NCBI GenBank assembly: GCA_050943375.1
Contig: JBMNPB010000007.1
Location: forward strand, 24,163 to 88,162
Source of the DNA: a bacterium
GTDB taxonomy: Bacteria; Bacillota; SLNR01; JBMNPB01
DNA length: 64,000 nucleotides
Direction: 5' to 3'
Part shown: positions 3,268 to 53,720 of the stretch, one piece after another
How positions within the stretch are numbered: position 1 is the stretch's first letter
How the letters are laid out: every line of letters starts with the position of its first letter
Program-made: the position numbers and the translations under genes
Notes under the pieces: generated by a model
The model's input: the letters and a program-made list of their open reading frames with translations, nothing else
The model's database searches: none
Told to the model about the DNA's origin: nothing

Positions 3268-4266
3268 TCAGCACTCATTATCCCATTTCTCTTTGAACTT
3301 CGCGAGAATCGGTTTGCGGTTCAGCTGATGGACCGCCTCGATAAAACGAATCGTGCCCGTCTTAGCCCTGGTCACGACCGAATGGGTCCTGACCCCGTTG
3401 CCGGAAAAACGGACACCGCGCAGCCAGTCGCCTTCCGTGATGCCCGTTGCGGCAAAAATCACATCGTCGCCACGCACGATATCGTCCATTAGCAGGACTC
3501 TTCTTGTATCGGTTAGGCCCATCGCCCTGATCCGTTCATTTTCCGCTTCATTTTGCGGGACAAGACGGCCCTGCAGTTCGCCGCCGAGACTGCGCAGGGC
3601 GGCCGCCGCCAACACTCCTTCCGGCGCCCCGCCGATCCCCATCAGAATATCGACTCCGGTATCTTCGATGGCCGTCGCAATCGCCGCCTCGACATCCCCG
3701 TCGCTGATCAGTTTTACCCTTGCCCCGGCTTTCCTGACTTCGCCAATAATTTGCGCATGGCGGGGGCGATCGAGCAGCGTCACTGTCAGATCCCGGATGG
3801 CGCAATTCTTCGCCTTGGCCACCTGACTCAGATTATCGTAGACCGGGGCATCGATATCAATACAGCCGGCCGCCGACGGCCCGACCGCGATTTTTTCCAT
3901 ATACATATCAGGGGCGTGGAGCAGGCAGCCTCGCTCCGCTACCGCGAGCGTCGCAATTGCACCGGGCAGGCCTTTCGCCACCAAATTCGTCCCTTCCAAG
4001 GGATCGACGGCAATATCGACGAGAGGCGGCTTGCCGGAACCGACCCGCTCACCGATATACAACATCGGCGCCTCGTCAATTTCCCCTTCCCCGATGACGA
4101 CGACACCGTCAATCTGCACCGTGTCGAAAACGGCCCGCATGGCGTCAACGGCGGCACCATCGGCTGCTTCCTTATCGCCGCGGCCCATCCAGCGCGCCGC
4201 GGCGATGGCGGCCGCCTCAGTAACCCGCACAAATTCCAAGGCCAGTTCTCTTTCCAAAATCGTCAC
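3268..4266 (-). CDS. glpX: fructose-1,6-bisphosphatase class II (GlpX)
   Basis: The 332-aa ORF has a GlpX-type N-terminus ([38 protein letters not shown]). Neighbours match Bacillus. Confidence 0.85.
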
Positions 4267-36589: not shown

Positions 36590-37640
36590 CGTAACGTAGG
36601 GAACGACGTCCCTGTCGTTCCGGGCGGCAGCGCCGGTGTAAGCGCGTCCGGTCGAATAATGGAACAGCACCGGAAGGGAATTGAAACGGTGCCAGAGACT
36701 GCCGCGTCGCCGCAAAACGCAGCTCCTCGCAGTGACAATGGCTTTGCGATGCATGAAACAAAGGAGCGAATCCCGCGCCCGGTCAGGTCGCCGCCCGGTA
36801 CATCCCCAAAAGCAACGAAAATGCAGGCACAACGTAGGGAGCGACGCCCCGTCGTTCCGGGCAGTAGTACCGGTGAGGGGAAAACCGGCAAAGCGGTGGG
36901 GGTACTTATTAGGCGGGAGAGATTGCCGCGTCGCCGGAAGAGCGCCGGCTCCTCGCAATGACAAAAGTAAGGCTACGCGGGCTTTGGAAACCGGCGGCCG
37001 GGGCCCCGCGAGTTCCTGCGCCGCCACCTTTCCCTTGATAAGGGAGAGGGTACTGGCTCTCAGATATTGCCGGCTATTTGTTAAATTGCCCCTTTTTAAC
37101 AAGGGAGGTGTCCGGGGAACCCTTGCTTTCGGACATTGCCGCCTCATTTTTACGTTGTCCCCCTTGTCAAAGGGGGATGTCGCCGAATGGCGACAGGGGG
37201 ATTTGTTGGATTGGATGCTCCAAGGATTAGGCAGAGTGGTCGATTGCTGCCTATGGGGGATACAGGGACGGTGTTTCGGCAGGACAGCGGGCCGGGCGGG
37301 CATGGAAACCCGCCCCTACCGAGGAAAACGCGGAACGGTGGGGTCACCGTTCCTTACAACCGGGCGGGACAGCAGGTCGGCTGGGCGTTCGCCCGCTTCT
37401 CCGCCCAAACCGTGACGTAGGGAACCCCGTCGTTCCGGGCGGCAGTACCGGTGAGGGAAAAACCGGCAAAGCGGTGGTGGCACTTACTAGGCGGGAGAGA
37501 TTGCCGCGTCGCCGGAAGAGCGCCGGCTCCCCGCAATGACAAAAGTAAGGCTACGCGGGCTTTGGAAACCGGCGGCCGGGGCCCCGCGAGTTCCCGCGCC
37601 GCCCCATTGAAGAGGCCCGGGGCCTGCGCCCCGGGCTTGC
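36590..37640. repeat. non-coding island with at least four copies of repeat family A (GAGATTGCCGCGTCGCCGG..CCGGCTCCTCGCAATGACA..GGCTACGCGGG) plus a family B element (CCCCCTTGTCAAAGGGGG...TGTCGCCGAATGGCGACA)
   Basis: Family A cores lie at about 36695-36745, 36921-36965 and 37499-37545. Near-identical 150-bp units occur at 36825-36975 and 37419-37570. Family B lies at 37155-37205. Only repeat-derived ORFs are present. Confidence 0.8.
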
Positions 37641-37645
37641 CGGTA

Positions 37646-40447
37646 TTATCCGTTCTGCTCGACTATCACAATGTAGTTGTCGTAATCGTAATCCACATAA
37701 GCCCCCAAGGCCTCAGCGCAGAACCGGAAAGGAATCATTGTCCGGCTGTTCAAGATCTCCGGCGCCGTGTCGGACGTAACCCGGACCCCGTTCCGGTAAG
37801 CTGCCTTGTCGCCGATGTACAGGACGATCGTATTGCCGCCGAGCGTCGCCGTAATCTTCTGCCGCGCCGGATTGGAAGCATCATATTCCACATAAGCTCC
37901 CATCGCCTCCGCGAGAGCGCGGTAAGGAATCATTGTCCGGCCGGCAGTGATGTACGGGTGAACATCGGTGAAATCGATATATTTACCGTTGCACCGGACG
38001 AGCGGCCGGGTCGCCGTACCCTTGCGGGCGGTTTCGGCTGCCGTCGTGAAGGAATAAGTCGCCGCCTCGACCGCGTAGCCGTCCGCATCTTCCACATCAT
38101 CGGTGATGTACAGATAATACTTGGTTCCGTATTTCAAGTTGTTGTCGGGATCCACCGTCACCGTCCGGGTCGAGGAAGAGTAATCCACATCGGCCGCGAC
38201 TTTGGCACTGCTGCCGGCTTCTTTCAGATAAATATTGTCGTCATCAATGGTGGAGGACTTCATCGCCCGGGAGAACTTGAACGTAATCTCCTTTTCCACC
38301 GGCACTTTCGTCGCGCCGTCCGCCGGGCTGAGGGAAGATATTTTCGCCTTCTCCGGCGCTGTTCTGAACGTCCAGTTGGAGGCGTATACCGCTGTCCCGT
38401 ACTTGTCCTGGACGCCGGTGGTGACATAGACGGTGTATTCGGTGTCGTACGCGAGGGCGCTCTTCGGCTTCAGCGTTGCCATCCGATCTCCCGAGTCATA
38501 ATCGACCGTGGCGCTGATCTTGGTCGAGGAGCCGGCCTTGCGCAGGCAGATATTCGTCGTATTGATGGTGCTGGATTTCATCGCCGTGGAAAAGGTCATC
38601 TCGATCGTCCCGTCGACCGGGAAGCCGGAACTGCCCGGCGCCGGGGTGCGCTTGATGATGTGCGGGTAATCGTCGTCCATCGTCGTGAAGGACCACTCCA
38701 CCGCCTCTATCTCGTCGCCGTGTTCGTCTTCGACCTCATCGGTCACATAGACGGTGTAGCTCTCATTGTAGCGCAGGTTGCTCTTCGGAGTCAGTGTCAC
38801 CACCCGGGTCGACTCGTTGTACTCGACCGTGGCGGAAATCTTGCTGCTGTACCCGTCCCGGCGCAGAAATACGCTGCCGCTGTCAATCGTATCCTCGTCC
38901 ATATCATCGGAGAATTTGAACGTAATTCGCGTGTCCACCGGGACGTTCGTCGCGTCTTCGGCCGGATATTTATCCTGGACGCGGACATAGTCGGGGCTGG
39001 TCGTGAAATACCAGTTTTCCGCCGTTACCCGATTACCGCTGGTATCCTTCACGTTGTTAGTGATGTAAACATAATAAGTGGTGCTTGACTGCAGTTCGGC
39101 TTTCGGTGTCAGTATTACCGTCTTATTGGAATTGCTGAAGGAAAGCGTTGCACTTATCTTCGTGGAGGAGCCGGACTTCCGCAAATACACCGTGCTGCTC
39201 GTTACTGTTGAGGTGTTGAGCGGCTTATTGAAATCGATAATAATCGGCTGGTCAAACAGAACCCCGCTATCCTTGGCGTCCGGCTCCCGGTCGACAATCA
39301 CCGGCAGTGAGCCCGCCTCGGTGGTGAAAGACCAGGAGGTCGCGCCGACCGAGCGGCCGTTCACATCTTTAAGACGGTTGCTGCCGATAGACACCGTGTA
39401 GGTCGAACTGGCATCGAGAGCGGCCAGGGGTGTCAGGGTAATCTCGCAGCGGCCGTTCACGTTAACCGGCACCACCGAAGCCGCCACAACAGCGGTTCCT
39501 TTTTTCAGAGCGACACCGGCAGTAGTGAAATCGGAGGCCGCCAAATCAAGTTCTTTGTCAAAAATCATCTCGATATCGGAGTCCACATCCACGTTCTTCG
39601 CCCCGCTGCCCGGATTGCGGCTGACTACCGCCGCGGCTGTACTTGGGTTGCCTTGGGTGGTGAAGGTGTAGCTGGCTGCCGCCGCGGCGTTGCCGGCGAG
39701 ATCCTTGATGCCGCCCGCCGCCACCCAGACCTTGTATGTAGTGCTGTAAGCCAAATCACTGGCCGGGTCGAGAATTACCGTGTCACCGCCGGCCACACTC
39801 AGGGCGGCGCTGATCTTGGTGGAACTGCCGTCCTTGGTGAGGTAGATGCTGCTGCTGTTTACCGACCCGGGCAGGATATCCTCACTGAAGGCGACTTCGA
39901 TGTTGCGATTAATCGAAACATTATATTCGCTCCCCGCCGGATCGCAATCTTTGCCGACCAGTTGCGGCGCAGTGCTGTCCTTGGTGATTCCGTGAATGTC
40001 AAACCTGACCGAGCGCAGTGCCACCGACGTATCAGTATCCAGCAGCTGCAGATTCACGGTATATGTCTTGCTGGCCGAAGGTAAGCTGATGGTATTCAAG
40101 GTCGAAGCGGAGCCCGAAGTAATCCCGTCCGGATCGTAAAGCGGGTAATAATACCCGTCCGTGAATATCTCGCCCGTCAGCCGGTAATGCCCCCCCGGCC
40201 CGAGAATATGCTCGACCCTGAGCGTAAAATCGAGGTTGGCGTTCAGAGTAGGCGAATAACCGCTGCTCTCCAAAGTGGCGATGGAAGGCAGTTCAACTTC
40301 ATTCAGCCAGATTCCGGTGAATGACCCGCTCCCGGCCAGAACGGGCGCCGGAAGCGAAACTGACGCCGCGAAAACCAAGAGAGCGAGGATGGCCGCCAGG
40401 CCGGAACGGAAACTTCTTTTCAGGTAATGCATTGGATATCCCTCCAA
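37646..40447 (-). CDS. large cell-surface protein with tandem Ig-like (Big-type) repeats and a C-terminal copper-amine-oxidase-N-type wall-association domain pair
   Basis: The 933-aa ORF has a signal peptide (MHYLKRSFRSGLAAILALLVFAASVSLPAPVLA). It has at least five repeats of about 95 aa (V/IYLRKSGSSTKISATLS...TYYVYITNNVKD...W.FTT) and C-terminal TMIPYRALAEAMGAYVEYD / TMIPFRFCAEALGAYVDYD half-repeats. Confidence 0.8.
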   Translation of the reverse strand: MEGYPMHYLKRSFRSGLAAILALLVFAASVSLPAPVLAGSGSFTGIWLNEVELPSIATLESSGYSPTLNANLDFTLRVEHILGPGGHYRLTGEIFTDGYYYPLYDPDGITSGSASTLNTISLPSASKTYTVNLQLLDTDTSVALRSVRFDIHGITKDSTAPQLVGKDCDPAGSEYNVSINRNIEVAFSEDILPGSVNSSSIYLTKDGSSTKISAALSVAGGDTVILDPASDLAYSTTYKVWVAAGGIKDLAGNAAAAASYTFTTQGNPSTAAAVVSRNPGSGAKNVDVDSDIEMIFDKELDLAASDFTTAGVALKKGTAVVAASVVPVNVNGRCEITLTPLAALDASSTYTVSIGSNRLKDVNGRSVGATSWSFTTEAGSLPVIVDREPDAKDSGVLFDQPIIIDFNKPLNTSTVTSSTVYLRKSGSSTKISATLSFSNSNKTVILTPKAELQSSTTYYVYITNNVKDTSGNRVTAENWYFTTSPDYVRVQDKYPAEDATNVPVDTRITFKFSDDMDEDTIDSGSVFLRRDGYSSKISATVEYNESTRVVTLTPKSNLRYNESYTVYVTDEVEDEHGDEIEAVEWSFTTMDDDYPHIIKRTPAPGSSGFPVDGTIEMTFSTAMKSSTINTTNICLRKAGSSTKISATVDYDSGDRMATLKPKSALAYDTEYTVYVTTGVQDKYGTAVYASNWTFRTAPEKAKISSLSPADGATKVPVEKEITFKFSRAMKSSTIDDDNIYLKEAGSSAKVAADVDYSSSTRTVTVDPDNNLKYGTKYYLYITDDVEDADGYAVEAATYSFTTAAETARKGTATRPLVRCNGKYIDFTDVHPYITAGRTMIPYRALAEAMGAYVEYDASNPARQKITATLGGNTIVLYIGDKAAYRNGVRVTSDTAPEILNSRTMIPFRFCAEALGAYVDYDYDNYIVIVEQNG

Positions 40448-40899
40448 TTTTGAAATTCAAACTGCCGTTACCGGATAATGTCATCCCCCGCACCCCTCTC
40501 CGGGGCGATTCTCACCTCTGGCCATACTCCGGGCTGTGCCTCATCCACCCGCGCCGGCCGCAGGACATTGCTTGGGGCGCGGCGCGGGAACCGCAACCCT
40601 CACGCCCGCAATCGGGCGACGGGAATAATGTACTTGCCGGCAGGGCGTAAACCGCAGAAACGATCCCAGGATGACCGCCCTGACCTGAATATCCCTCATT
40701 CCCTGCCCTTCGCGTGCAACAAAAGCCGGGAGAGCCATTCCTCACCCCCTCGCTGCCTCCGCCAAAATTGGGCAAGGAGGAAAAGAAACGGGCCAAGAGC
40801 AGGCTGAGAGACGGTTAAAGACATGGCGACAAGATGAGAATGAGGACAGTAGAACGCGACATATCCGGTATTCACTTATTAATTCGGTAACCAGTCTAT

Positions 40900-41410
40900 T
40901 ATTTAGACGGAGGACGACCCTCCTTTGTTTCCTATTCTACCATTTATTTGTCGACTTTTTAAGACAAACCGGGAATTTCTCTGTCGCCGCCGGATAAAAA
41001 GCAGGAATCGCCCGGCGCATTCTTTGGAACGGGGCGACTCTTGCTGGATTTGAATGAAAGGACGCGAAAAAAGTTTGTCCGTTGACAAGGGGACAACGCA
41101 AATCTAAGCCTCCCTTGTCAAAGAGAAGTAGCGGCGCAGCCGTCGGTTTCCAATGCCCGCGTAGCCTTACTTTTGTCATTGCGAGGAGCCGGTGCTCTTC
41201 CGGCGACGCGGCAATCTCTCCCGCATAGTAAGTGCCACCACCGCTTTGCCGGATTTTTCCCTCACCGGTACTGCGGCCCGGAAAGACGAGGTTTCCTACG
41301 TAACGGTTTGAGCGGGGATGCGGGCAGGCACTCACACAGCCAATCCTCCTGTCGCCGATCGGCGCATCCCCCTTTGACAAGGGGGACAACATTAATCTAA
41401 GCCTCTCTTG
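40900..41410. repeat. repeat island: inverted family A copy (41150-41310) flanked by family B palindromes (41095-41125 and 41368-41400)
   Basis: The sequence is the reverse complement of the 37419-37570 unit. CCCCTTTGACAAGGGGGACAAC and CTTGTCAAAGAG motifs are present. Confidence 0.75.
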
Positions 41411-41789
41411 CCAATGGGAGGCGACAGCGAAGCCGGCGGAGGGACTCGGAGCACGGATTCCCTCGCCAGTAAAATCACCCGTATCGTCCCGCCTATGTCA
41501 CAATTCATGATAGAAATCCCGCCATTATCCGGCCTTTATCTGCTTTTCTCTTGCAATAACCGTTCTGACATCAATGCCCGCTTCATAATAAACCAAGGCG
41601 CTGACGTTATATCCGCGGTGTAAGTGCCGGCCTGCTTCTCTTTATGCTCGCACACCCTTCTTTTCAGGTTGTTGGTTATACCCGTGGACAGAACCGTATG
41701 AGTTTTGTTAGGCAGGTTATGACGAAATAATCCTTTGTCATTACAAGCACCTCTAAGCCAAAGATTACCGCGCCATGGGAAACAAGGGT

Positions 41790-42447
41790 TCCCGCCGCCT
41801 GAGTTTCGTTGCGAATAACTTGCTGCCGGGCAACGCGGGTACAAGAACTGATCCGGAGTTTGCCGCGTCGCCGGGAAAGCGCCGGCTCCTCGCAATGACA
41901 AGGGCCGGGCGATGCGGGTCCAAGGTTACGAAACCAAAGGGTTACATACTTCCGTGAAGGTATCTGCTCCCCAGGAAAGCTCTATCTGGACAATACGGAT
42001 TCGTGGCGCTCAGCCGGAGATTGCCGCGTCGACGGGAGAGCACCGGCTCCTCGCAATGACAGTAGTTGGGCGATGCGGGCCCAAGGTTACGAAACCTAAG
42101 GGTTACGTCCCTCAGTGAAAGTAGCAACTCTGCAAAACAAAACTATCTGGACAATGCGGGTACATGGCACTGAGCCGGAGATTGCCGCGTCGCCGGAACA
42201 GTGCCGGCTCCTCGCAATGACAGTAGTTGGGCGATGCGGGCCCAAGGTTACGAAACCTAAGGTTTACATCCTTCCGCGAAGGTATCTGCTCCCCAGGAAA
42301 GCTCTATCTGGACAATGCGGCTTCGTGGCGCTCAGCCGGAGATTGCCGCGTCGCCGGAAAAGCGCCGGCTCCTCGCAATGACAAGGGCCGGGCGATGCGG
42401 GTCCAAGGTTACGAAACCTAAGGTTTACATACTTCCGCGAAGGTATT
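41790..42447 (+). repeat. tandem array of about four units of about 160 bp, each containing a family A core
   Basis: Cores begin at about 41860, 42017, 42177 and 42339, with spacings of 157-162 bp. Each unit has the form gagattgccgcgtcgNcggRaRagcRccggctcctcgcaatgaca..gggcgatgcgggYccaaggttacgaaaccWaaggKttacRt..ggacaatRcgg..tcgtggcgctcagccg. The inter-core sequence is also conserved, so the array is not CRISPR-like. Confidence 0.8.
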
Positions 42448-42520
42448 ATGCAGGAAACTCACTCCGTACTACATACCATTCCCAATGAAGCCGGCGGCAT
42501 AGATGTGGGGTAACCCCGGA

Positions 42521-42556
42521 CGTAAAGGAAGACCCTCCATCACTGGAGGGTCTTCC
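42521..42556 (-). terminator. putative terminator after the 959-aa surface-protein gene
   Basis: A 13-bp perfect stem (ggaagaccctcca-tcac-tggagggtcttcc) sits 10 nt after the stop codon. The U-tract is weak. Confidence 0.45.
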
Positions 42557-42566
42557 GGATAGGCTG

Positions 42567-45446
42567 TTATTTCGTCAGGGTAATGACCTCGGTGCCGAAG
42601 TTGTAGTCGACATAGAACCCGAAGGCTTCACCGACGAAGCGGAGAGGCACAACGGTCCGGCCGTCAACGACCTTCGGAGCTACTTCGAGGGTCTGCTCGA
42701 CACCGTTCACCGAAGCGACGGTGGAACCGATGGTCAGCCAGACTTCGTCGACGGTATTCTCGTCAACCCGGAGCCGGTAGCAGACCTTGTCGGGAGCAAT
42801 GAACTCGACGTAGGCACCGATGGCTTCCGCGATGTAGCGGAACGGAACCAGAGTGCGGCCGTTCTCGGCGAACGGAGCAACATCGAGAGTGCTCATCGAG
42901 CCGTTGGCAACGGCGGTCTTGTTGCCGAGCTGCATGGTGATGACACCAGCGCCGGCAGCATCAAGAGAGACTTTGATTTCGCCTTCGGCATACTCATCTT
43001 TAACGTCGGTTTCGACCTTAACTGTGATCTTGCCGGTAGATACGGGCTTGATCTTGAAGGTAACCTGGCCGTTTTCGTCAGTCTCGCTCTCGGCGGTCAA
43101 AGGACCGGTGAGTTCGACATCCTTCTCAGCATACGGCTTACCATGAGCGTCAAGAACCGTAATCGTAACGGTGGACACAACGTCGACACCGATGGCCGCC
43201 GGGGAAGCGGTGATGCTCATGCCGACAACTTCGATCTCGGCAACTTCCACACGCGGGCCGTCATCGATCTCAACTTCGAAGGTCAGGAGCATCGGCTCGT
43301 CATCGTCATCCTCTTCGTAAGCGAGGATGTCGAATTCGGCCTCGCCGTCACCCATGTCGATATCGAACTCCTCCGCGTCGTCACCAATGTCTGCCAGTTT
43401 ATCGCCATCAATCGCAAGGGTGCAGTTGTCGGGAGTGATATACAGATACGCGTCTTCGATCACGCTGTCGTCCCGCGGGTCAACCAGCTTGACTTCCCAG
43501 TTTTCTTCAACCATGTAAGTCAGCTTGGTGTCTTCGTTGGGGAGAACGAGCTTCGGCGCGAGGACTTCGATAGTTGTCTTGCCGATGAACTCGCCGTTGT
43601 CGGTCTTGAAGACAAGGTCAAGCTCTTCCGCTTCGTCGTGGACAAAGGAGAAGGAGTAGACGTTACCGTCACGGTCGAGCTCGATGTCTTCGCCATCGAT
43701 GGTAACGTATGCATTGCTATCTTTCACATACGCGCCGTCCTCGTCCTTAACGGTGAATTCAACGTCTTCTTTTAGTCCGGCTACGAGCTGCTCAGGAGCG
43801 TCAACGTCGTAGACGTCCTCGCCTTCGACATCGATCTTCACGTAGGTCATTGGTGTTCCGTCAACCTTGGTCACCAGCACAAATGCGGTGCCGACTTCGT
43901 TGAAGCGGACAGTCCTTGTGTAAATGCCGTTGTTGATGTTGGTTTTGCTGGAATCGATTTCTTCGAAATCAATCCAGTCTTCGTCGTCATCATCGTACTC
44001 ATCCGCATCGTAGTCATTGATTGAGTCTGGATTAAAGACGTCATCCCAATCCCAGTCAAAATCTTCATTGTCAACTTTCAGATAGACGACCGCGTTGTTG
44101 ACCGGGGTCTCGTCGGTCTTGGTCACGACAGCCTTGAACTCGTACTTATCTTCATAAGTAGCGGTCTCCGGGGTTACAGTGACGACCCAACCGTCAACCT
44201 TGATCTTCTCGGTCTTGGTCACTTTGTCGCCGTCTACCATAGTCGCGACGGCGGTAACCAGGATCTCGCCACCGCACTCGGGAAGGAGTCCCTCAAAAGT
44301 ATATGAGTTATCGGGAATCGATTCATCATCAACTGTCGCATCTTCATCGATGCCGCAACCTTCAACTGTAATCTTAACCTTCTCGATGTTCTCGCCGATA
44401 CCGTCACCGTCGTCATCCCAGAACTCAACCTCGAGATCGAGTTCTTTGACCGCGTCGACTTCGGTGTCGCTGAGGGAAATGTTGAAGGAAGAAGGTCTGA
44501 CGACTTTGATGGTGGTTTCACCTTCGTAGTCTCCATCTTTATCCGCTGTTACCTTGGCAGTACCAGCCTTCGGGAATTTTACAGTGATAGTGACTTTGCC
44601 GCCATCGACTGTCGTCCCAGACGCTTCGTAATCACCGAGAGTGATTTCGACGTCAGCGCCAATTACCGGCTTGCTGCCGTCTTTTACAGTAACTTCAATT
44701 ACTTCCGCCCGATCTCTGATGACGGAGGACTTGTTGACTTTAACTGACAGCGTGTCTTTCGCTGCAACTTCAAATTCATCGTATTCGATTTCGTTGTCAT
44801 CGCCGTCATCGCCACCAATCCACGGGCACTCGAGCATTACCACATAGTCGCCAGCCTTATCAAACTTGGCAGCCAGAGCGAAGGAACCGTTGGAAGCCGC
44901 TCTGGTCGAGGCAATAGCGTCACCCCTGCTATCGCCGGATTTGACAATGTACACATATGGTCTGTCTTCGAGGCTGTAGCCGGCGCCGTCTTTTACAGTA
45001 CCGGTGATGGTCTTGGTGTCACCGATCTTGATTGACGGAATGGTCAAGCTCATGTCATGCTTGGTTGTGACAGTCGTTGAAGCTAATCCGTCAGGAATAG
45101 CGCTCTCTACAAGGTCTACCACATCATCATCGATTACAATTTTGTAATCCTCGTTGTGGTCATCCGCGGCATTGATTACAACATTGAAAGAACCCGAGGA
45201 GAAAGGTCCTCCATGCGCGACGCGCTTGTTACTTCCCACCTCAAACACACCGTAGTACAAATCATCTCTGTTCGCCTTATCATCTTTCAATACAGTAACA
45301 CGAACAGTATTGGTAGTGGCTGTGAGTATGTACTCGTCGGCTTCGACCTTATAGACCGGGCCGTCAGCAAAGACCGGCGCAACGACACCGAATGTGCTGA
45401 GAAGCATAGCCAATGTCACAACTATGGCTATAAGTTTCTTCTGCAT
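42567..45446 (-). CDS. large, highly acidic cell-surface protein with a C-terminal copper-amine-oxidase-N-type domain pair
   Basis: The 959-aa ORF has a signal peptide (MQKKLIAIVVTLAMLLSTFGVVAPVFA) and Asp/Glu-rich beta-type repeats. The C-terminus carries TLVPFRYIAEAIGAYVEF / RTVVPLRFVGEAFGFYVDY, matching the wall domain of the 933-aa protein. Confidence 0.8.
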   Translation of the reverse strand: MQKKLIAIVVTLAMLLSTFGVVAPVFADGPVYKVEADEYILTATTNTVRVTVLKDDKANRDDLYYGVFEVGSNKRVAHGGPFSSGSFNVVINAADDHNEDYKIVIDDDVVDLVESAIPDGLASTTVTTKHDMSLTIPSIKIGDTKTITGTVKDGAGYSLEDRPYVYIVKSGDSRGDAIASTRAASNGSFALAAKFDKAGDYVVMLECPWIGGDDGDDNEIEYDEFEVAAKDTLSVKVNKSSVIRDRAEVIEVTVKDGSKPVIGADVEITLGDYEASGTTVDGGKVTITVKFPKAGTAKVTADKDGDYEGETTIKVVRPSSFNISLSDTEVDAVKELDLEVEFWDDDGDGIGENIEKVKITVEGCGIDEDATVDDESIPDNSYTFEGLLPECGGEILVTAVATMVDGDKVTKTEKIKVDGWVVTVTPETATYEDKYEFKAVVTKTDETPVNNAVVYLKVDNEDFDWDWDDVFNPDSINDYDADEYDDDDEDWIDFEEIDSSKTNINNGIYTRTVRFNEVGTAFVLVTKVDGTPMTYVKIDVEGEDVYDVDAPEQLVAGLKEDVEFTVKDEDGAYVKDSNAYVTIDGEDIELDRDGNVYSFSFVHDEAEELDLVFKTDNGEFIGKTTIEVLAPKLVLPNEDTKLTYMVEENWEVKLVDPRDDSVIEDAYLYITPDNCTLAIDGDKLADIGDDAEEFDIDMGDGEAEFDILAYEEDDDDEPMLLTFEVEIDDGPRVEVAEIEVVGMSITASPAAIGVDVVSTVTITVLDAHGKPYAEKDVELTGPLTAESETDENGQVTFKIKPVSTGKITVKVETDVKDEYAEGEIKVSLDAAGAGVITMQLGNKTAVANGSMSTLDVAPFAENGRTLVPFRYIAEAIGAYVEFIAPDKVCYRLRVDENTVDEVWLTIGSTVASVNGVEQTLEVAPKVVDGRTVVPLRFVGEAFGFYVDYNFGTEVITLTK

Positions 45447-46454
45447 CTTACGAATTTCCCTCCCTTTGATATTTCTTCTTGCTCACGATCCTCCTGAGCC
45501 AAACACGGAAAGACAAATGAGTTTATTTTCTACCCATCCCCTCCCTTCGGAAGTTTCATATTCCTTACAAAACCGATTACCTATCTATATGCCTATACAC
45601 CTTCCGGTAAGATTGTCCGACCAAAAGACTAAATCTTACGCCGGAAGGCGTCGCAGCCTTGTGAAGCAGAGTGTCCGAAGTCCGGAGCGACGAAACCGGG
45701 AACCGGGTCCGAGGCTTCAGACTATTGACTTGATTCCTGATTTCGGTTGTCAAAGATCAGCCGCCGGGAATAAAGTGGCTTAATATGATATCTTTTCTAC
45801 ACCGCGCAGATAATTCCTGCTCCGCCGGCCGCCGCGCCGATAAGTAAGTTTTGGGGCGGCATGGATAATCTGGCAACGCATTTTCCATATATTAGTACGG
45901 AGCTGACCCCGGATATAGAACGCTGAATTGTCAAAGAGCGGAATGCGTAAACAAATTGATATCCGAGAAAGACCGGACATTTGAAACAGGGGAAAAATAA
46001 GCCAAGCATGGAGTTTACATACAATTATAGCATGCAATGGGTTAAGCGTCAACGAATTCTCTGGCGGAGAGCCGTCAGAATAATTCCCCATTATTTCCGG
46101 ACAACTCGTTTACCGGCCAGGCGCAGAAAAATTCATTTTATTCCCTGTAACTGAATACTTATTCTGGACACTGCTACCGATTCCTGCCGGATTCCGGTGG
46201 ATTCTTCAATTTTTTTACATGATACCGGGAGACAAGTTTTGTTGCTGCCTTTTATTGTCGTAAAGAGGCTGGGGGAAGTTCCCCGTAATCGCCGGATTTG
46301 TGAAAAAAATTTACGGTAAACCGGAAAGGGGTATGCAGAGAGGCATTGTTATATATTATGAAGGAACCGGCGGAAAGTACCGTCTCCTGCCGCCGGGCAT
46401 CAAGAGAAATGGCCAGGTGCATAGAGTAGTTTCCTGCATCAGAAGGGAGGAAAC

Positions 46455-46520
46455 CCGAGATTGCCGCGTCGCCTTCTTCTGAGAGTATTACTGCCGGGCG
46501 GCTCCTCGCAAAGACACAGG
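46455..46520 (+). repeat. family A repeat copy (degenerate)
   Basis: aaacccgagattgccgcgtcgcc...gctcctcgcaaagacacaggcaaggctacgctggc. Confidence 0.7.
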
Positions 46521-46783
46521 CAAGGCTACGCTGGCAAAGTAAAGGCGGGTCACCGGCCCCGACCGGTTGAACCCTGATACCCTGCCCTTCTCCAGAGATC
46601 AAGCGATAAGTGCGGGTCGCAGGGAACGACGCCCCGTCGCTCCCTGTTGCGGTGCTTGCTTGTCGGTCAAACCTGATCCATTTGTAGGGATGGCCCTCGT
46701 CGTTCCGGACCGCAGCGCCATGCCGGCAGGCGTATCCCCCGCCCGATACACCCTCTCCCCGGACGCCGTCCGTCCCTCTCCGT

Positions 46784-47485
46784 TTACGGCAATACCGGGT
46801 ATCCCGGCAAATAAGGAGCGATGCCGGCAAGCAGGAAGACGGCGATGAGCGCCACGGCGATCAGGAATACAATCAGAGCCGCAACCGGGACGAGGATAGT
46901 AAGCACGGCGCGGCCGGTGGAGAGGCCGTGCACTGCCTGGACGGCATTCACCATGAGGACAACGGACCAGATGAAGACAGCAAAAGCAAGGATATTATAT
47001 ATCCACTCCAGACGCCCCCGGGCAAGCAAGGCAGCCGGCGCGAGGAAGATGCCCGGCAGGCCGGTAAAGCCGAGAGCGACGAAAAGATGATAGCCGCGCC
47101 CGGTGCCGCCGAAGAATTCGGCCAGCAGATGCAGGACGGCCGTGCTCAGGAACCAGCCGGCGGCGCCGCCCAGCAGACTGAGCGGGAATAGGACGAAGAG
47201 CAAGACAGACCGGACCGCCGCCGGCAGTTCGTCACCCGCGACGTAGCCGGCCGAGACGGCCGAGAGAAGCTGGGTAATGAGAAAGACAAGCACGGCCGCC
47301 CCCAGGGGGTGGTCGCGGGCTATCTTCGCGAACGTCGCGGCCGGGGTGAAGAGGACGCCGTACAGGAGCTCGAAGAAGGTGTCCCGGCCGGGCGGCGGCG
47401 GATTCTCCGCCGGGGACGCCGCGGGGGCCGGCCGGTCGGCGGCCGGGGTATTCCCGGCATCGAATTGGTTTTCGTTGTCGTTCAT
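46784..47485 (-). CDS. Yip1-domain membrane protein
   Basis: The start was moved to MNDNENQFDAG at 47485, which has the RBS AAGGAGG. The product is a Pro/Ala-rich N-terminal tail followed by five TM helices of Yip1 type (FFELLYGVLFTPAATF...). Confidence 0.65.
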   Translation of the reverse strand: MNDNENQFDAGNTPAADRPAPAASPAENPPPPGRDTFFELLYGVLFTPAATFAKIARDHPLGAAVLVFLITQLLSAVSAGYVAGDELPAAVRSVLLFVLFPLSLLGGAAGWFLSTAVLHLLAEFFGGTGRGYHLFVALGFTGLPGIFLAPAALLARGRLEWIYNILAFAVFIWSVVLMVNAVQAVHGLSTGRAVLTILVPVAALIVFLIAVALIAVFLLAGIAPYLPGYPVLP

Positions 47486-47689
47486 GGTTTCAGCCTCCTT
47501 GGTGGTAAATTGCCGGACCATCGCCGCCATTGCTCCAGGCGCGCCTGATAACAGCGCCGTCCGTCTTGTTTCCGGCACGCTCCCGGGGCGTCCCGATCCT
47601 CACCCCTATCCCCTCTCCCGCATCGGGAGAGAGGAATTAGCGCAGTTGGGCGGCGGGATAACCGCATCGGGAAGGAGAAGCGGGCAGGC

Positions 47690-47830
47690 GCCCGTGCAGC
47701 CTTACTTTTGTCATTGCGAGGAGCCGGTGCTCTTCCGGCGACGCGGCAATCTCTCCCGCATAGTAAGTGCCCCCGCCGCTTTGCCGGTTTTGCCCCGGCC
47801 GCACCGCGGCCCGGAGCGGCGAGAGCGTCG
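47690..47830 (-). repeat. family A repeat unit (inverted orientation)
   Basis: ccttacttttgtcattgcgaggagccggtgctcttccggcgacgcggcaatctctcccgcatagtaagtgcc... is the reverse complement of the 37419-37570 unit. Confidence 0.75.
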
Positions 47831-47947
47831 CTCCCTACAATTACGGCCGGGTTTTGCCCTGGCCGGCACCGCGGCACGGACGGCGGGGGCAAGCCCAACG
47901 AATACGTCCCGCCGCCCAGTCCCGAAAAGAGGAGCCGGGGATGAGGG

Positions 47948-48883
47948 TTAATTCCCGAAATCCACTCCATAACCCGGCAGCAGCAAAAACCGCGCGGGGA
48001 CGATAGGCTCGGCGGCGGCCGGCAAGCCGGCCCGGCTGCCGAAGCCGGAACGGAGCATCTGCCAGATGGAAGCCCTCCCGTATTCGCGGACGGTATATCT
48101 CTCCCCGAGGCCGGCCGCCGCGGCGGCCTCGTCGATGGCGTCATAGAAATTGCCCAGCGTGTCGACGAGGCCGAGGTCAAGCGCCTGCCGGCCGGTGAGA
48201 ATCCGCCCGTCGGCGATTTCCCGCACCCGGGCCGGCTCCATCCCCCGGCCCGCGGCGACGACGTCAACGAACTGCTCGTAGACGTCGTCCACCATCGCCT
48301 GCAGCAGCTCCTTCTCCGCCTCCGTCATCTCCCGGGCCGCGGAGCCCATATCCTTGTGCGGGCCGCTCTTGATCACATGCATCTCGATGCCCGCTTTCCG
48401 GTACAATTCCTCGTAATTGGAATATTGGATGATTACCCCGATGCTGCCGGTGGTCGTCGACGGATTCGCCACGATCTTGTCAGCCAGAGCCGCCACCCAA
48501 TAGCCGCCGGAGGCGGCCGTGTCGCCCATGGAGGCGACGACTGTCTTGCCGGCTTCCCGCAGGCGGCCCACTTCCACCCCGATTTCCTGCGCGGCGGCGG
48601 AACTGCCGCCGGGGCTGTTGATGCGCAGGACAACGGCGCGCACCGCCGGATCCTCCCGCGCCTGCTTCAGCTGCGCAATGACAGTGTCGGAGCCGGCGAC
48701 AGCCCCGCCCAGCAGGCTCGAACCGCCGGGCCCGCCGAGAATCATGCCTTCAATATAGATAACGCCGACGGTGCGGCCAGCGGCGGCGCCGGCCGGGCGC
48801 CGATCCGGACGGGCCAGCAGTCCGGCGGCGGTCAGGATGATAACGGCGGCCAGGACGAGCCCGCCGAGTATTTTTTTATTCAC
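47948..48883 (-). CDS. sppA: signal peptide peptidase SppA (S49 family, 36K type)
   Basis: The 311-aa ORF has an N-terminal TM, VGVIYIEGMI..., and the serine-site region (AVVLRINSPGGSSAAAQEI). Confidence 0.85.
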   Translation of the reverse strand: MNKKILGGLVLAAVIILTAAGLLARPDRRPAGAAAGRTVGVIYIEGMILGGPGGSSLLGGAVAGSDTVIAQLKQAREDPAVRAVVLRINSPGGSSAAAQEIGVEVGRLREAGKTVVASMGDTAASGGYWVAALADKIVANPSTTTGSIGVIIQYSNYEELYRKAGIEMHVIKSGPHKDMGSAAREMTEAEKELLQAMVDDVYEQFVDVVAAGRGMEPARVREIADGRILTGRQALDLGLVDTLGNFYDAIDEAAAAAGLGERYTVREYGRASIWQMLRSGFGSRAGLPAAAEPIVPARFLLLPGYGVDFGN

Positions 48884-49142
48884 TTTCCCTTCCCTCCCGC
48901 ATCATCTTCTGCCGCGCCGGCGCGGCGCGGTCAACTGTATTATATCCGAGGCGAAAGCGGATAGTCAAAACCGGGCGGTAATTTTCCTGAGTCCATCACT
49001 CAAAAAATAAACCCGTATCCATATAGACAGTAAGGACATTTATTTATCCGTGCCCGAAAGTGAATGATCAGACAGAGCGGCAGCAACAATGAAGCGCAGG
49101 GCTACTGACCCCGCGCTCTCCCTTGGCTGACCTCAGCACCGC

Positions 49143-49517
49143 CTACTCCGCCGACCGGAAATAAATGTCCCGGCACTTACCGCAGAAAGCGCACTCCACG
49201 GCGTGGACCTTGTCCTGGGTCAGCCCCCATTCGCGCAACTCTTTCAGAACCGGCGCCAGACTCGCGCCCATCCCGCTCAGGGAATATTCGACCCGGGGCG
49301 GGACTTCCGGGAAGACCCGGCGGCGCACCAGACCGTCCGCCTCCATCTCCCGCAGCTGCTGGGTCAGGACCTTGGTGCTGACGGGCGCGATTTCCCGGGC
49401 GAGCTGGCCGTGACGCAGCGGCCCGCGGGACAGCGCTTTCATAATCAGGATTTTCCATTTGCCGCTGAGCAGCGAGAGAGTCGATTCAATGGGACATTTT
49501 CCTATCGTTTCGCGCAT
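49143..49517 (-). CDS. HxlR-family transcriptional regulator
   Basis: The 124-aa ORF has the HxlR signature (CPIESTLSLLSGKWKILIMKAL...RVEYSLSGMG). It is divergent from the racemase gene. Confidence 0.8.
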   Translation of the reverse strand: MRETIGKCPIESTLSLLSGKWKILIMKALSRGPLRHGQLAREIAPVSTKVLTQQLREMEADGLVRRRVFPEVPPRVEYSLSGMGASLAPVLKELREWGLTQDKVHAVECAFCGKCRDIYFRSAE

Positions 49518-49674
49518 GGCTGTCGCCTCCGTTTCCCCGATAGTTACCTATGGGTCGGCAAGGTTACAAAAAAGTGCCTGCTTGCCAGATTTCCCTTTTC
49601 AGTATATTTTTATCTTAGCCCGGCGTCAATCGGCAAAGCGGCGGGCGGACGAAAATCCTCAGGAGGTGCTTGCC

Positions 49675-50367
49675 ATGAAAAAAGCCGGTCTGGTCGGCGG
49701 AATCGGCCCGGCGTCAACGCTGGAGTATTACCGGGGAATCACCGAAGGTTACCGGGAGAGAGTAGGCGGCGGCAATTATCCCCCTCTCATCATCGACAGT
49801 CTTAATTTGGCCGAGATCTACGACCTCGTCGACAACAAGCAGTGGGACGAATTCGCCGCCCGTTTCGTCCGGTCGATAAAGAGTCTCGCGGCCGGCGGGG
49901 CCGAATTCGCCGCCATGGCGGCCAACACGGCCCATATCGTCTTCGACGCAGTCCGGAGTCAGTCCCCTCTGCCTCTGGTCAGCCTCGTCGAGGAAACGAG
50001 CAAAGCCGCCCGGGCCAAAGGCTGCCGGCGCATCATCGTCTTCGGCACCGGGTTCACCATGCGCAGCGGCATGTACACGGAAGCGCTGGCAGAAGCGGGA
50101 ATCGAAGCCTTCGTGCCCGAGCCGGACGAACAGTCGGCCATCCACAACATCATTTTCCCCCACCTGGAAGAGGGAATCGTCCTGCCGGAAGAGAAGGAAA
50201 CGATGCTGAATATCGCCCGCCGCCTGATCAGCGAAAAGAAGGCGGACGCGCTGCTCCTCGGCTGCACGGAACTGCCGCTGATCATCAAGCCGGAAGATCT
50301 GGCCGTCCCGGTTCTGGATACGACCCAAATCCACATTGACGCCATTTTGGACAACATCCTGGCCTGA
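49675..50367 (+). CDS. Asp/Glu/hydantoin racemase-family protein (aspartate racemase-like)
   Basis: The start was moved to MKKAGLVGGIGPASTLEYY at 49675, which has the RBS GGAGGT. Two catalytic-Cys regions typical of the family are present (GCTELPLI). Confidence 0.8.
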   Translation: MKKAGLVGGIGPASTLEYYRGITEGYRERVGGGNYPPLIIDSLNLAEIYDLVDNKQWDEFAARFVRSIKSLAAGGAEFAAMAANTAHIVFDAVRSQSPLPLVSLVEETSKAARAKGCRRIIVFGTGFTMRSGMYTEALAEAGIEAFVPEPDEQSAIHNIIFPHLEEGIVLPEEKETMLNIARRLISEKKADALLLGCTELPLIIKPEDLAVPVLDTTQIHIDAILDNILA

Positions 50368-50415
50368 ACGCCGAAGCCCGAGCGGCGGCGAAAAACCGGA
50401 CGGGGAGGAAGAAAA

Positions 50416-50856
50416 ATGTATCTTTACACTATTGGCTTTACGCAGAAGAGCGCCGCGGAGTTTTTTTCGCTCTTAACCGAAAATGATGTCGCCGTCCTGG
50501 TGGACGTCCGTCTGAACAATTCCTCCCAGCTGGCCGGGTTTTCCAAAGGCAGGGATCTGGAATATTTCCTGCGGACAATCTGCGGCTGCCGCTATGTCTA
50601 TGCGCCGGAGCTCGCGCCGGCGAAGGAGATATTCGACGCCTATAAAGGCAAAAAAATTTCCTGGCCGGAATTTGCCGACCGCTTCCGGGCGCTCATCCTG
50701 GAAAGAGGCGCCCTGGACGCTTTCCCGGCGGCGCCCGGCGGAGCGGAAAGAGTCTGTCTCCTGTGCAGCGAACCAACGCCGGAGCATTGTCACCGGCGGC
50801 TGCTGGCGGAAATGCTGCGGGAGAAACAGCCGGAGATAATCATCAACCATCTCTAG
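50416..50856 (+). CDS. DUF488-family protein
   Basis: The 146-aa ORF reads MYLYTIGFTQKSAAEFFSLL...VLVDVR...LLCSEPTPEHCHRRLLAE, the DUF488 signature. Confidence 0.7.
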   Translation: MYLYTIGFTQKSAAEFFSLLTENDVAVLVDVRLNNSSQLAGFSKGRDLEYFLRTICGCRYVYAPELAPAKEIFDAYKGKKISWPEFADRFRALILERGALDAFPAAPGGAERVCLLCSEPTPEHCHRRLLAEMLREKQPEIIINHL

Positions 50857-50913
50857 ACGGGGAATAAAAGGCGGACGGCTGCTGGCCGTCCGCCTTTCTT
50901 TTTTCACCCCTAT

Positions 50914-52203
50914 TTACTGCCAGACCGACTCGGTATATTTGTTGCTCGCGTTCCAAAGCAGGAATTCCTCCACCCCCAGTTCCGCCAAGGCCCGGATCTG
51001 GGCCTCGACTTCCGTCTTGCCGTAAGGGATCGCTCCGTCCACCCATTTCACCGCCGTGAAGTCCTGCAGCCAGGGACGGATAATAGCCTTCCGGGGCAGC
51101 GGCTCGTTCCTCTCCAGCGCGTCGGTGATGGCGTTGTGCACGGTCCCGTGGGGATGCGCGTCCGGCACCGCGTAGCCGAAATATCCTCTGCCGTAATGGC
51201 TGGGATAAACCATCGGGCAGATGTAGTCGGTGGCGGCGCTGATTGCCTCCCATTCCTGGCCGATGTCGTCCGTGTCGCCGGGCGATGTGGCGATGACCCC
51301 GAAAACGTCGGCACTGACGAAGACGCCGTAAGGAGCAAGCTCCTCCCTGGCGTAAGCAAGGAATTCGGCGACAGCCTGCGCCTTCGTCCGGTCATTCTGC
51401 TGCGGAAAGGCGGCTTCGGCGTTGACCCGTTTGGCGTTGTCCGGGAAGCGGACATAATCGAACTGAATCTCCCTGAAGCCGTTGAGGGCCGCCTCCTTGG
51501 CAATGGCAATATTGTAATCCCAGACTTTCCGGTCGAAAGGATTGACCCAGGAAATGCCGTCCTTGTCCTTCCAGACGCCGCCGCTCTTCCTCTGAATGGA
51601 AAGATCGGCCCGGTGGCTGGAAAGGTTGGGGTCCTTAAAGGCGACGATGCGGGCGATGGGATAGATTTCTTTCTCTTTCAGTACCGCCAGCAGCGCCCCT
51701 ACATCCTTAATCCGTACGTAACGATTCGCCCCGACCGCCTCGGCCATGGCGATATCGCTCCGGTACGTCATCAGGCCGTTGTCGTCTTTGACGTCAATCA
51801 CGAGAGAATTCAGGCCGGAGTTTTCGACCAGAGCAAGCAGGTGATTGAAGCGGGAAGCAAGTCCGGCGATATTGCCGGTGATGTACAGGCCTTTTGCCTT
51901 AACCGGCGGATTGTCAGGCAGGACGGCGGGCGGCAGGGGTATGTACAGATCGCCCAATTCCGCGCGCCGGCGCTCCTCCGCCTCGGCCCGCAGCCGCTCC
52001 TCTTCGGCGCGGCGCGCTTCCTCCGCCAGGCGGGCTTCTTCGGCCAGGCGCTGCTGCTCCTCGACCCGGCGCTGTTCGGCCGCCAATTTCCGGGCATCGC
52101 TGAAAGCCCGCACCTGAGTGACAGCGACAAACATCAGACAAACGAGCAGGAAGGAAGCGGCAAGGAAACGAAGACGGAAACGGGGCTTTGGCTTGGCCTG
52201 CAC
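50914..52203 (-). CDS. putative glycoside-hydrolase-like TIM-barrel protein (GHL/DUF4015-type) with an N-terminal anchor and an Arg/Glu-rich coiled segment
   Basis: The 429-aa ORF has a TM anchor, then an RRVEEQQRLAEEARLAEEARRAEEERLRAEAEERRRAEL low-complexity region, then a GHL-type domain (WVNPFDRKVWDYNIAIAKEAALNGFREIQFDYVRFP). Confidence 0.6.
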   Translation of the reverse strand: MQAKPKPRFRLRFLAASFLLVCLMFVAVTQVRAFSDARKLAAEQRRVEEQQRLAEEARLAEEARRAEEERLRAEAEERRRAELGDLYIPLPPAVLPDNPPVKAKGLYITGNIAGLASRFNHLLALVENSGLNSLVIDVKDDNGLMTYRSDIAMAEAVGANRYVRIKDVGALLAVLKEKEIYPIARIVAFKDPNLSSHRADLSIQRKSGGVWKDKDGISWVNPFDRKVWDYNIAIAKEAALNGFREIQFDYVRFPDNAKRVNAEAAFPQQNDRTKAQAVAEFLAYAREELAPYGVFVSADVFGVIATSPGDTDDIGQEWEAISAATDYICPMVYPSHYGRGYFGYAVPDAHPHGTVHNAITDALERNEPLPRKAIIRPWLQDFTAVKWVDGAIPYGKTEVEAQIRALAELGVEEFLLWNASNKYTESVWQ

Positions 52204-53149
52204 GGTATCATTCTCCTTTGCGCGATAGTGTCGGATATTAAGTAAACAATTCCGATATTACCGCCAAATCCCTGCCGTTTCGACAAAATATCGGGATGAT
52301 TTTTTTCACCGGAAAGCAAAGGTAAAGCAGGCCGGAAACAGATACCAGGACAGAGCCAGAAATAATTAATGAGGGCTGAGATTCGCGTTTCCGAAATCTT
52401 GCCGCCGGATGAGCCGAAAAAAACGCCCGGAAACAAAAAACAAAAGCCGGGACGGCAGGCAATCCGCAGGGCCGCAAGATGAAGTCATATATTCTCATTC
52501 TTGCCCCTCTCCCACATCGGGAAAGGAGATGCGGAGTTATTTCGCAGTCTTTGCGGCGGAGGTGTGACCGGCAAAGGAACGGACCACCCAGGCACTGCGT
52601 GCCGTCCCTCCGCCGGAGGGGAATGGAAAGCCGGGCAATGATTACGGTCCGCGCTTTGCGCCGCCGCTGCCGCGGAGAAAAAAATTGGCGGGCAATTAAA
52701 ACAATACCGTCAACAATTCCCCTCTTCTGGAGGGTGGCCGGAGAAGCCGGACGGGGTGGCCGCGGGCGGTGTTCCGCGCTGCCCCGCTTTTATCGATGGG
52801 AAGTAGTAAGTCAAAAGCCGCAAGCGGAACGGCGGGACGATAGCGATGGCAAAGACGGCAAACGGGTCCCGTTACAGGCCGGACTGACGGCAGGCTGCCG
52901 GCCGCCGCGTCCCCGGGCGCGCGGGCTTTGCCGCTGCTGCGGGATAATGCGGGAGCCGCCCTTCCGGTCGGCCCCCGATATATACCATAATTCCCGGCTG
53001 GTGGACGGGAAGAAACTGGGAGAGCTTCGGGAAGAAAACGGGAATGATGCGGAGAAGACGGCGGCCGGGAGAAGGCGGCTTGGGTTGAAACGTTGAGGCC
53101 GGAATGTATGAAATGCGTTCCCTCCGTAAGAAGGAGAAGGGGCAGGGCG

Positions 53150-53720
53150 CGAAACCCGAGATCGCCGCGTCGCCGCTCACGGCTCCTCGCGATGACATTT
53201 GCAGGGCAATGCTGGCCATAAGGTACAAAAGTCAAGAGTACCGTTTCGCCGCCCGCGGCTCCTCATGATGACAAGGGCTTGGCTATGCAGGCGCTAACCC
53301 TCGCTCCTGCCCGCCGTCTGCGTATGGATTGGCTTTCGGGAGCGGCGTCTCGGCCAATTCAAATCCCTCCGTCAGCTTCGCTGCCACCTCCCTTTAACAA
53401 GGGAGGCTTCTGGGGACTCTGGCTCTCAGGCATTACCTACTTCCGTTTACGTTGTCCCCCTTGTCAAAGGGGGATGTCGTCAATAGGCGACAGGGGGATT
53501 TGCTTCAACGCAAGGCTATCATCGTATCAGTATGGCACTGCCGGATGCCAAATCCCTCCGTCAGCTTCGCTGTCACCTCTATTTGACAAGGAGACTACCA
53601 AAGCCTGCGGTGGCTGTGGCAGATATGGTATTGAGAGCCGTCGCTTTTTCGGGAGAAGCAGTATCCTTGGACGTTGTCCCCCTTTGACAAGGGAGGCAGG
53701 CAAAATCCGCAAAGAGAAAC
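53150..53720. repeat. repeat island with family A (53158-53198 plus a half copy at 53245-53275) and family B (53385-53410, 53452-53500, 53585-53600, 53672-53700) elements
   Basis: gagatcgccgcgtcgcc..ggctcctcgcgatgaca; ttgtcccccttgtcaaagggggatgtcgtcaataggcgacagggggatttg. The 53395-53505 stretch is homologous to 37080-37205. Confidence 0.75.

Follow-up and report, generated by a model that had tools for sequence, protein, structure and literature searches.

A 64-kb stretch of contig JBMNPB010000007.1 (hereafter the window), which is chromosomal DNA of a spore-forming Bacillota, carries an intergenic repeat, family A, in 11 clear copies and one degenerate copy, all lying between 36.7 and 53.3 kb. 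Family A is best explained as a bipartite-stem variant of a kind of hairpin first characterized in 2025, and it is probably a DNA-level hairpin repeat of the class of the Ssn-related motifs (SRMs), or CGTC/TGTC-tagged repetitive extragenic palindromes (REPs). In Neisseria, ssnA, the gene of a 94-amino-acid (aa) single-domain GIY-YIG protein, is flanked by the NTS (CGTCATTCCCGCGMAVGCGGGAATCYRG) and related SRM hairpins. Ssn proteins bind to the hairpin and cut immediately upstream, acting only on the tagged strand of single-stranded DNA (ssDNA) and neither on duplex DNA nor on RNA; the NTS-ssnA-NTS arrangement resembles an insertion sequence, and NTS clusters adjoin surface-protein genes (PMC11893778). 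We read family A as an Ssn-cognate motif because its hairpins bracket an ssn-like gene at related loci and because the window itself holds an ssn pseudogene with flanking copies.

A conserved hairpin with a bipartite stem

A covariance model (R1) built from 13 sequences, all from other organisms, was run over the 64 kb with filters off. It recovered 11 strong copies in the window (E 3.6e-13 to 1.7e-5) and, with the degenerate copy, retrieved all 12; the next-best score beyond these was no better than E 1.5. Each half of the core was also found 11 times within 36.6–53.2 kb, where 0.1 and 0.01 occurrences would be expected by chance. The repeat family reported in the initial annotation, with at least 12 copies in both orientations and in tandem, is therefore real, and the positions given there were right to within a few bases. 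A match with three mismatches at 16827–16845 was attributed to chance, since R1 does not recover that site.

On one strand, the core reads RGATTGC-CGCGTC-GCC(variable apical stem-loop)GGC-TCCTC-GCAATGAC-R, and on the tagged strand 5′-YGTC-ATTGC-GAGGA-GCC-(variable apical stem-loop)-GGC-GACGCG-GCAAT-C-Y-3′. This corresponds to a 5-bp outer stem, a conserved asymmetric internal loop and an inner stem variable in length and sequence, with unpaired conserved tags at both ends of the hairpin. Among 122 instances, conservation ends at R-G-ATT on one side and at GAC-R on the other, the flanks beyond RGATT...ATGACR show none, and the center (6–32 nt) varies in both length and sequence. Hence, the conserved unit is only 42–60 nt long (~45 nt) rather than 70–150 bp as first proposed, the longer units being local mosaics. 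The base following GAC is a G in 60 and an A in 58 of 121 instances, and the C-Y tail is conserved.

The pairing of both stems is conserved as well. The 103 distinct apical inserts lengthen the GCC/GGC stem by 4.39 consecutive Watson-Crick pairs on average, compared to 2.44 for shuffled inserts (the highest of 200 shuffle means being 2.61). The outer-stem triplets, that is, the three bases before GCCGCG, lay outside the search pattern; set against the three bases after CTCGC, they read ATT/AAT in 93 cases, ATC/GAT in 10 and ACT/AGT in 4, and were fully complementary in 107 of the 121 instances. When the 121 model-aligned matches were scored, 97.3% of the cells were paired and 7 of the 10 pairs showed double changes, values reached by none of 500 shuffles. 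The check for compensatory changes suggested in the initial annotation thus came out positive: both stems covary, almost entirely through Watson-Crick pairs. G-U pairs account for just 2 of 830 cells, which we take as a sign that the pairing is selected on DNA.

DNA folding gave the two-stem hairpin as the minimum-energy fold of single copies, and the inner CCGG...CCGG hairpin noticed earlier proved to be real, appearing across genomes as a self-complementary, variable apical stem. However, the long-range pairing proposed between GCCGCGUCGCC and a downstream GGCGAUGCGGG or GGCUACGCGGG is not conserved. In the other genomes, the downstream 45 nt matched the complement of GCCGCGTCGCC at 7.23 of 11 positions, against 7.18 of 11 after shuffling. 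Within the window, the 3′ segment exists in two variants, and the 5′ segment stays invariant, with no change to compensate for them. The 5′ end has its conserved partner in the ATTGC/GCAAT stem and not in a distant segment.

These results bear on the idea favored by the initial annotation, namely a structured RNA (a small RNA, or a stabilizer or regulator in the 3′ untranslated region (UTR)) that is cotranscribed with the neighboring genes. The covariation of the hairpin would suit such an RNA, and REPs are known to act in 3′UTRs (bioRxiv abstract 10.64898/2026.03.23.713779). The YGTC-tagged strand is the minus strand for 10 of the 12 hairpins; these copies follow the orientation of the genes, most of which are on the minus strand, and are situated downstream of coding regions, though this small sample is confounded by a tandem array and no bias can be called from it. 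On the other hand, almost purely Watson-Crick pairing would fit a signal that is read on DNA, ssn is bracketed by units in both orientations, as inverted ends, the proposed long-range pairing is not conserved, and Ssn does not bind RNA (PMC11893778). No match in the 64 kb reached an Rfam gathering threshold (the best by E-value, RT-3, scored 20 bits where 40.5 are required, E 0.47), and a promoter and terminator scan found no terminator-like copy and none with a terminator-like T tract. Given the Watson-Crick-only pairs, the lack of an Rfam match or a terminator, and a protein family that acts on ssDNA, an RNA role is not needed, and we regard it as unlikely; the hairpins may have a secondary effect on mRNA stability. 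What stands of the earlier proposal of a structured RNA or a transposon-like element is a structured, REP-like intergenic repeat.

A GIY-YIG gene is associated with the hairpin

All the open reading frames (ORFs) within 1.5 kb of the motif were clustered into families. A single shared family was found to abut the motif, composed of ~95-aa GIY-YIG proteins with PF01541 as their sole Pfam domain (E 1e-11 to 1e-19). In four of five such loci, the protein is encoded on the strand of the motif, with its stop codon 16–43 nt ahead of that motif.

Following the reverse route, 80 metagenome loci were fetched via the protein, using four query sequences. A YGTC-tagged hairpin was present upstream of the gene in forward orientation in 46 of 78 protein-anchored loci. 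Immediately past the stop codon, 49 of 76 loci had one in reverse orientation. Tagged hairpins were found on both sides, inverted, in 35 of 74, while the rate in shuffled flanks was 0.5%. Arms of the ATTGC type predominate (35 of 46), and ATTCT, ATCCT or ATTCC arms are seen in other loci.

One of these genes, at locus L194, has the canonical NTS TGTCATTCCCGCGAAGGCGGGAATCCAG on both sides, and its protein is 59% identical to that of locus L051 (query residues 4–95). The putative assignment of the ~95-aa proteins to the Ssn clade (CDD cd10448, homologs of N. meningitidis SsnA) rests on their homology to this NTS-flanked protein. UPF0213 structures gave a weak match only (1zg2, E 1e-7), and NCBIfam holds no specific family for ~95-aa GIY-YIG proteins.

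A further intact ssn homolog, P0143, is 55% identical to the window pseudogene described below. As it occurs on 30 contigs, it was considered as a multi-copy mobile gene, and this was rejected: in 10 of the 10 places shown (L210–L219, from 24 protein-carrying contigs read), it stands between gyrB and gyrA, at 1501–1785 in most of them. The P0143 locus is fixed and single-copy, not a mobile copy, and represents one conserved gyrB-ssn-gyrA locus sampled repeatedly. At L210, a perfect family A core lies at 1386–1421, 80 nt upstream of the ssn homolog.

The window holds a decayed ssn gene between two hairpins

A tblastn search with the ~95-aa proteins revealed a homolog in the window at 41740–41495 on the minus strand (E 3e-13), split over two frames and also detected by hidden Markov model matches. 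This is a truncated, frameshifted ssn pseudogene (41495..41740, minus strand): the reading frame shifts at least twice, there is a stop after ..IKAG, ~15 aa are deleted, and Ser takes the position of Tyr in the YTG motif. It is 56% identical to the L051 protein (alignment A2) and matches the NTS-flanked L194 protein with an E-value of 2e-17. Its nearest intact relatives, one of which is in a Clostridia metagenome-assembled genome (MAG), are ~60% identical and sit within clusters of the same GATTGCCGCG subtype. An intact member of the clade, the 93-aa protein P0122, is encoded in the Clostridia MAG GCA_017462505.1.

The two hairpins around the pseudogene are in the expected orientations, with other repeats inserted between. 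Copy 5 (41855..41900, plus strand; R1 44.4 bits) lies ~115 nt upstream of the pseudogene ATG in the tag orientation, reading TGTCATTGCGAGG..GCGGCAAAC on the minus strand as expected of a left end. Copy 4 (41174..41219, minus strand; R1 54.5 bits) has the opposite orientation and is found downstream of the pseudogene, at a distance of ~280 nt; it reads GAGATTGC..GCAATGACA on the minus strand as a right end, in keeping with the architecture of the related loci.

Several observations weigh against assigning family A to the Ssn-related class. The structural alignment behind the pair counts of the 121 matches was itself fitted to the model, and the folding energy of single copies is no better than that of shuffled sequences (z about -0.4), so that the structural support is evolutionary, not thermodynamic. 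The published SRM pattern, HGTCWYN(0-2)YYVSBRHN(0-5)WNVSBRGN(0-2)RNCYNB, matches none of the 11 window copies and only 1 of the 80 ssn-anchored loci; its two matches in the window are unrelated. The stem of family A is longer and interrupted. An ssn-like ORF is present within the 8-kb block at only 8 of the 119 motif-anchored loci listed, and most copies are therefore orphans. Finally, the local ssn gene is inactive, which would leave the copies in the window either served by an intact paralog elsewhere in the genome or as relics.

Distribution across genomes

With one genome per species, a search using a pattern derived from the core in the window matched at least 119 loci. Among the matches listed, the core occurs in Alpha- and Gammaproteobacteria, Rickettsiales, Clostridia, Omnitrophota, Patescibacteria, Verrucomicrobiota, Chloroflexota, Spirochaetes and Planctomycetes, as well as in isolates of the Bacteroidota (Mucilaginibacter and Algoriphagus), and it is kept almost base for base in many phyla.

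In several Mucilaginibacter species (L016 at 3608–3653, L119 at 2480–2525, L018, L022 and L070), the conserved arms are separated by an insert of 18–20 nt that forms no hairpin and has only two fixed pairs. L016 and L119 at least share their downstream flank, as if the site were orthologous and possibly used differently. A 10-kb contig from a viral collection (L121, IMGVR_UViG_3300031753_000062) carries two strong copies (4980–5024 and 8710–8751) and one weaker copy (4936–4972, minus strand).

Short, palindromic, multi-copy and intergenic units are also what would be seen if family A were a miniature inverted-repeat transposable element (MITE), a non-autonomous element derived from a DDE-type insertion sequence and bounded by terminal inverted repeats, and the orthologous spacer of a relative that lacks the element (L203, see below) would agree with this. 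However, the check for target-site duplications was negative: at most 3 of the 122 instances had matching flanks, whatever the boundary and for lengths of 2 to 6 nt. In addition, no DDE transposase is associated with the repeat, and the conserved unit is only ~45 nt long with a conserved asymmetric interior. The classical MITE that had been suggested is unlikely because target-site duplications were not found, and altogether we find this explanation scarcely credible.

Copies in the window and their genomic setting

Every copy sits between Pfam-supported genes, in agreement with the intergenic position given in the initial annotation; the genes around the copies encode an HD-domain protein, Yip1, SppA, HxlR, a racemase, DUF488 and DUF4015 proteins and an MBL hydrolase. 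The window also carries Spo0A, FliG, Rho, glycolytic and envelope polysaccharide genes. For SppA, the nearest named relatives (from Heliobacteria, Negativicutes and others) are 55–60% identical. Over the whole window (1–64000), most genes are on the minus strand, and the GC skew of the plus strand is negative, which suggests that the minus strand is the lagging-strand template. Two large paralogous surface proteins, with multiple Big_5/Big_1 Ig-like domains and a C-terminal Cu_amine_oxidN1 domain, are encoded at 37646–40447 and 42567–45446, both on the minus strand, and the densest clusters of repeats bracket their genes.

The first of the copies outside the ssn locus, copy 1 (36694..36737, plus strand; R1 48 bits, E 2.6e-11), was also found by a tagged-hairpin scan. 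It has the GAGACTGC...GCAGTGAC form on the plus strand, which places the YGTC-tagged strand on the minus strand, and its outer stem is the compensated variant ACTGC/GCAGT. Copy 2 (36918..36963, plus strand; R1 54.5 bits, alignment A6) and copy 3 (37496..37541, plus strand; R1 49.5 bits) each lie within a composite unit of ~184 nt belonging to repeat family D3 (95% identity). Copy 9 (46456..46516, plus strand) scored 38.6 and 27.5 bits in two covariance-model runs; it has a long apical insert of 27 nt and ends in GCAAAGAC. Copy 10 (47709..47754, minus strand; R1 54.5 bits, repeat family D7) belongs to a composite unit that separates the genes for SppA and Yip1. Copy 11 (53157..53197, plus strand; R1 50.5 bits, also found by the tagged-hairpin scan) carries the compensated outer stem ATCGC/GCGAT. 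The half copy noticed near 53245 corresponds to the degenerate copy 12, which has lost its 5′ arm and which R1 detects at 53233..53273 on the plus strand (15.8 bits, E 0.036). The recurring peptides RLLAMT and DCRVAGRAPAPRNDK are the core translated, as can be read directly from the sequence and as had been suspected.

Copy 5 is in addition the first unit of a tandem array of 3.7 units of 161 bp (41853..42446, plus strand; repeat family D1), found by Tandem Repeats Finder with 84% matches and a score of 845. Each unit consists of one hairpin and ~115 nt of other sequence, so that the array amplifies the hairpin upstream of the pseudogene. The remaining hairpins of the array, all on the plus strand, are copy 6 (42016..42061; R1 42.8 bits), copy 7 (42177..42222; 53.2 bits) and copy 8 (42338..42383; 53.2 bits).

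The longer, nearly identical units described earlier are also present, measuring 184 nt with 95% identity (36847/37425) and 107 nt with 93% identity (41155/47690). The units of 150–184 nt are mosaics of a GTAG hairpin, a CCGG hairpin, an SRM-like hairpin and a tail. The GTAG-tagged hairpin (GTAGGGAACGACG..CGTCGTTCC), for instance at 36596..36621 on the plus strand (tagged-hairpin scan, alignment A6), is a separate REP-like module that precedes family A in the composite units; related copies are near 36838 and 37417 and, on the minus strand, near 41290 and at 47813–47838. In five composite units, it lies ~60 nt from the family A hairpin.

GTAG-tagged hairpins are the type linked to RAYT (REP-associated tyrosine transposase) enzymes. 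Their proximity to family A, the mosaic regions resembling bacterial interspersed mosaic elements (BIMEs) and the lack of target-site duplications would all agree with a classical REP or BIME mobilized by an IS200/IS605-like RAYT, of which family A would be one module. However, the tag of family A is YGTC, not GTAG, and no transposase-like ORF or RAYT gene was found among the annotated window genes. Outside this genome, moreover, the hairpin occurs without the GTAG module, and the ORF associated with it across genomes encodes a GIY-YIG protein and not a Y1 transposase. We therefore consider it very unlikely that a RAYT drives family A.

Other repeats were seen in the same regions. There is a further type of GTAG-tagged hairpin (GTAGGGGCGGG..CCCGCCC), and a GTAG-tagged hairpin is also found at 37294–37319 on the minus strand. 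A third repeat family (GTTGTCCCCCTTGTCAAAGGGGGATGTCGCC..GGCGACAGGGGGATTTG), made of two nested hairpins, occurs in the same intergenic regions as family A (37115–37205, 53412–53502, 53664–53693, 41089–41146 and 41382–41439), and a fourth (CAAATCCCTCCGTCAGCTTCGCTG.CACCTC) at 53360 and 53549.

The SppA-Yip1 spacer was compared with that of a relative, L203, whose SppA is 79% identical. The spacer of L203 is 140 bp long and lacks the family A hairpin, while that of the window is 370 bp long and holds the composite unit with copy 10, a comparison in which the divergence is too great to fix the insertion boundaries. Just upstream of Yip1 in the window (47600–47640) is a hairpin CCCCTCTCCCG-CATC-GGGAGAGAGG, of which the orthologous spacer of L203 has two tandem copies (3095–3185).

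Short-read contigs of the same strain end at the repeats, one (L120) at about window position 53450 and another (L206) at about 47850. Independent assemblies thus break at the repeat-filled intergenic regions, which fits repeats that are multi-copy genome-wide; in practice, such repeats break short-read assemblies.

Proposed mechanism and significance

By analogy, the family A hairpin would form in single-stranded DNA, such as the lagging-strand template or incoming transforming or conjugating DNA. An Ssn-type nuclease would then bind it strand-specifically and nick just upstream of the YGTC tag, as extrapolated from the biochemistry of Ssn (PMC11893778). The dispersed and tandem copies may be orphans that arose from an SRM-ssn-SRM element by spread or amplification and that now share mosaic intergenic regions with GTAG-tagged hairpins and other repeats. 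The role of the copies in this genome and the mobility of the unit are both points that we infer.

A bolder extension, which we put forward tentatively and consider rather doubtful, is that SRM-ssn-SRM units are autonomous mobile elements whose minimal GIY-YIG nuclease would move DNA with hairpin ends via single-stranded intermediates. The ATTGC-type hairpin would then be the most widespread of their ends, spread horizontally through more than 12 phyla and seeding orphan REPIN-like copies and tandem arrays. If this were true, SRM-ssn-SRM would do by unrelated chemistry what RAYT/REPIN and IS200/IS605 do, and would represent a kind of element not recognized so far. The near identity of the 34-nt core from Patescibacteria to Bacillota would then indicate recent horizontal spread and tight co-evolution with the nuclease.

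The reading of family A as an Ssn-cognate hairpin accounts for a large class of repeats found between genes in the genomes and metagenomes of many phyla, together with the spurious “hypothetical proteins” made from them (peptides ...RLLAMT and ...APRNDK). It also links these repeats to a nuclease family that is being developed into site-specific ssDNA-cutting tools, and with its conserved internal loop and freely variable apical stem, the subtype is a candidate for a new enzyme and site specificity. As the published motif definition misses the bipartite-stem type, surveys using that definition may undercount Ssn-motif pairs.

Comparison with known systems

In form, family A agrees with the description of an SRM as a hairpin-forming inverted repeat of 20–50 nt with a conserved, unpaired and orienting upstream (C/T)GTC tag. 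As in the known Ssn/SRM systems, the hairpin is directional: the (C/T)GTC tag is at its 5′ side, the stem begins with AT, and a ...AATC-Y tail follows at the 3′ side. In both, the copies are numerous, intergenic and locally clustered, and the distribution among phyla is wide. In both, two inverted units bracket a gene for a ~94-aa single-domain GIY-YIG protein, here at the 35 of 74 related loci. The Neisseria clusters lie by surface-protein genes, and the largest clusters here flank the Big_5/Cu_amine_oxidN1 genes.

The differences lie mainly in the stem, which is bipartite in family A (ATTGC/GCAAT, the GAGGA/GACGCG loop and the variable apical stem), whereas the NTS has a continuous 8-bp stem. 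Family A is also longer, with 42–60 nt compared to ~28 nt for the NTS. Moreover, its host here is a spore-forming Bacillota MAG whose local ssn is a pseudogene. No follow-up literature on Ssn after PMC11893778 was found, and literature searches with the literal motif strings returned unrelated primer sequences only.

The CGTC/TGTC-tagged REPs have AT-starting stems and, when they were described, had no known transposase (PMC3733652). Like them, family A has a terminal CGTC or TGTC tag, complementary A-T residues at the start of the stem, a short tail that stays unpaired and units arranged as head-to-head dimers, but those REPs have continuous stems of 8–9 bp and loops of 4–5 nt and are mostly found in Alphaproteobacteria (PMC3733652). 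The running text of that article contains neither “ATTGC” nor “GCAAT”.

Finally, family A resembles the REP/REPIN-RAYT and IS200/IS605 systems in that hairpins recognized as ssDNA flank the gene of a small single-domain nuclease, without target-site duplications and within a mosaic, BIME-like organization. The two differ in the fold and chemistry of the enzyme, an HUH tyrosine transposase in those systems as opposed to a GIY-YIG protein here, and in the tag, GTAG there as opposed to YGTC in family A.

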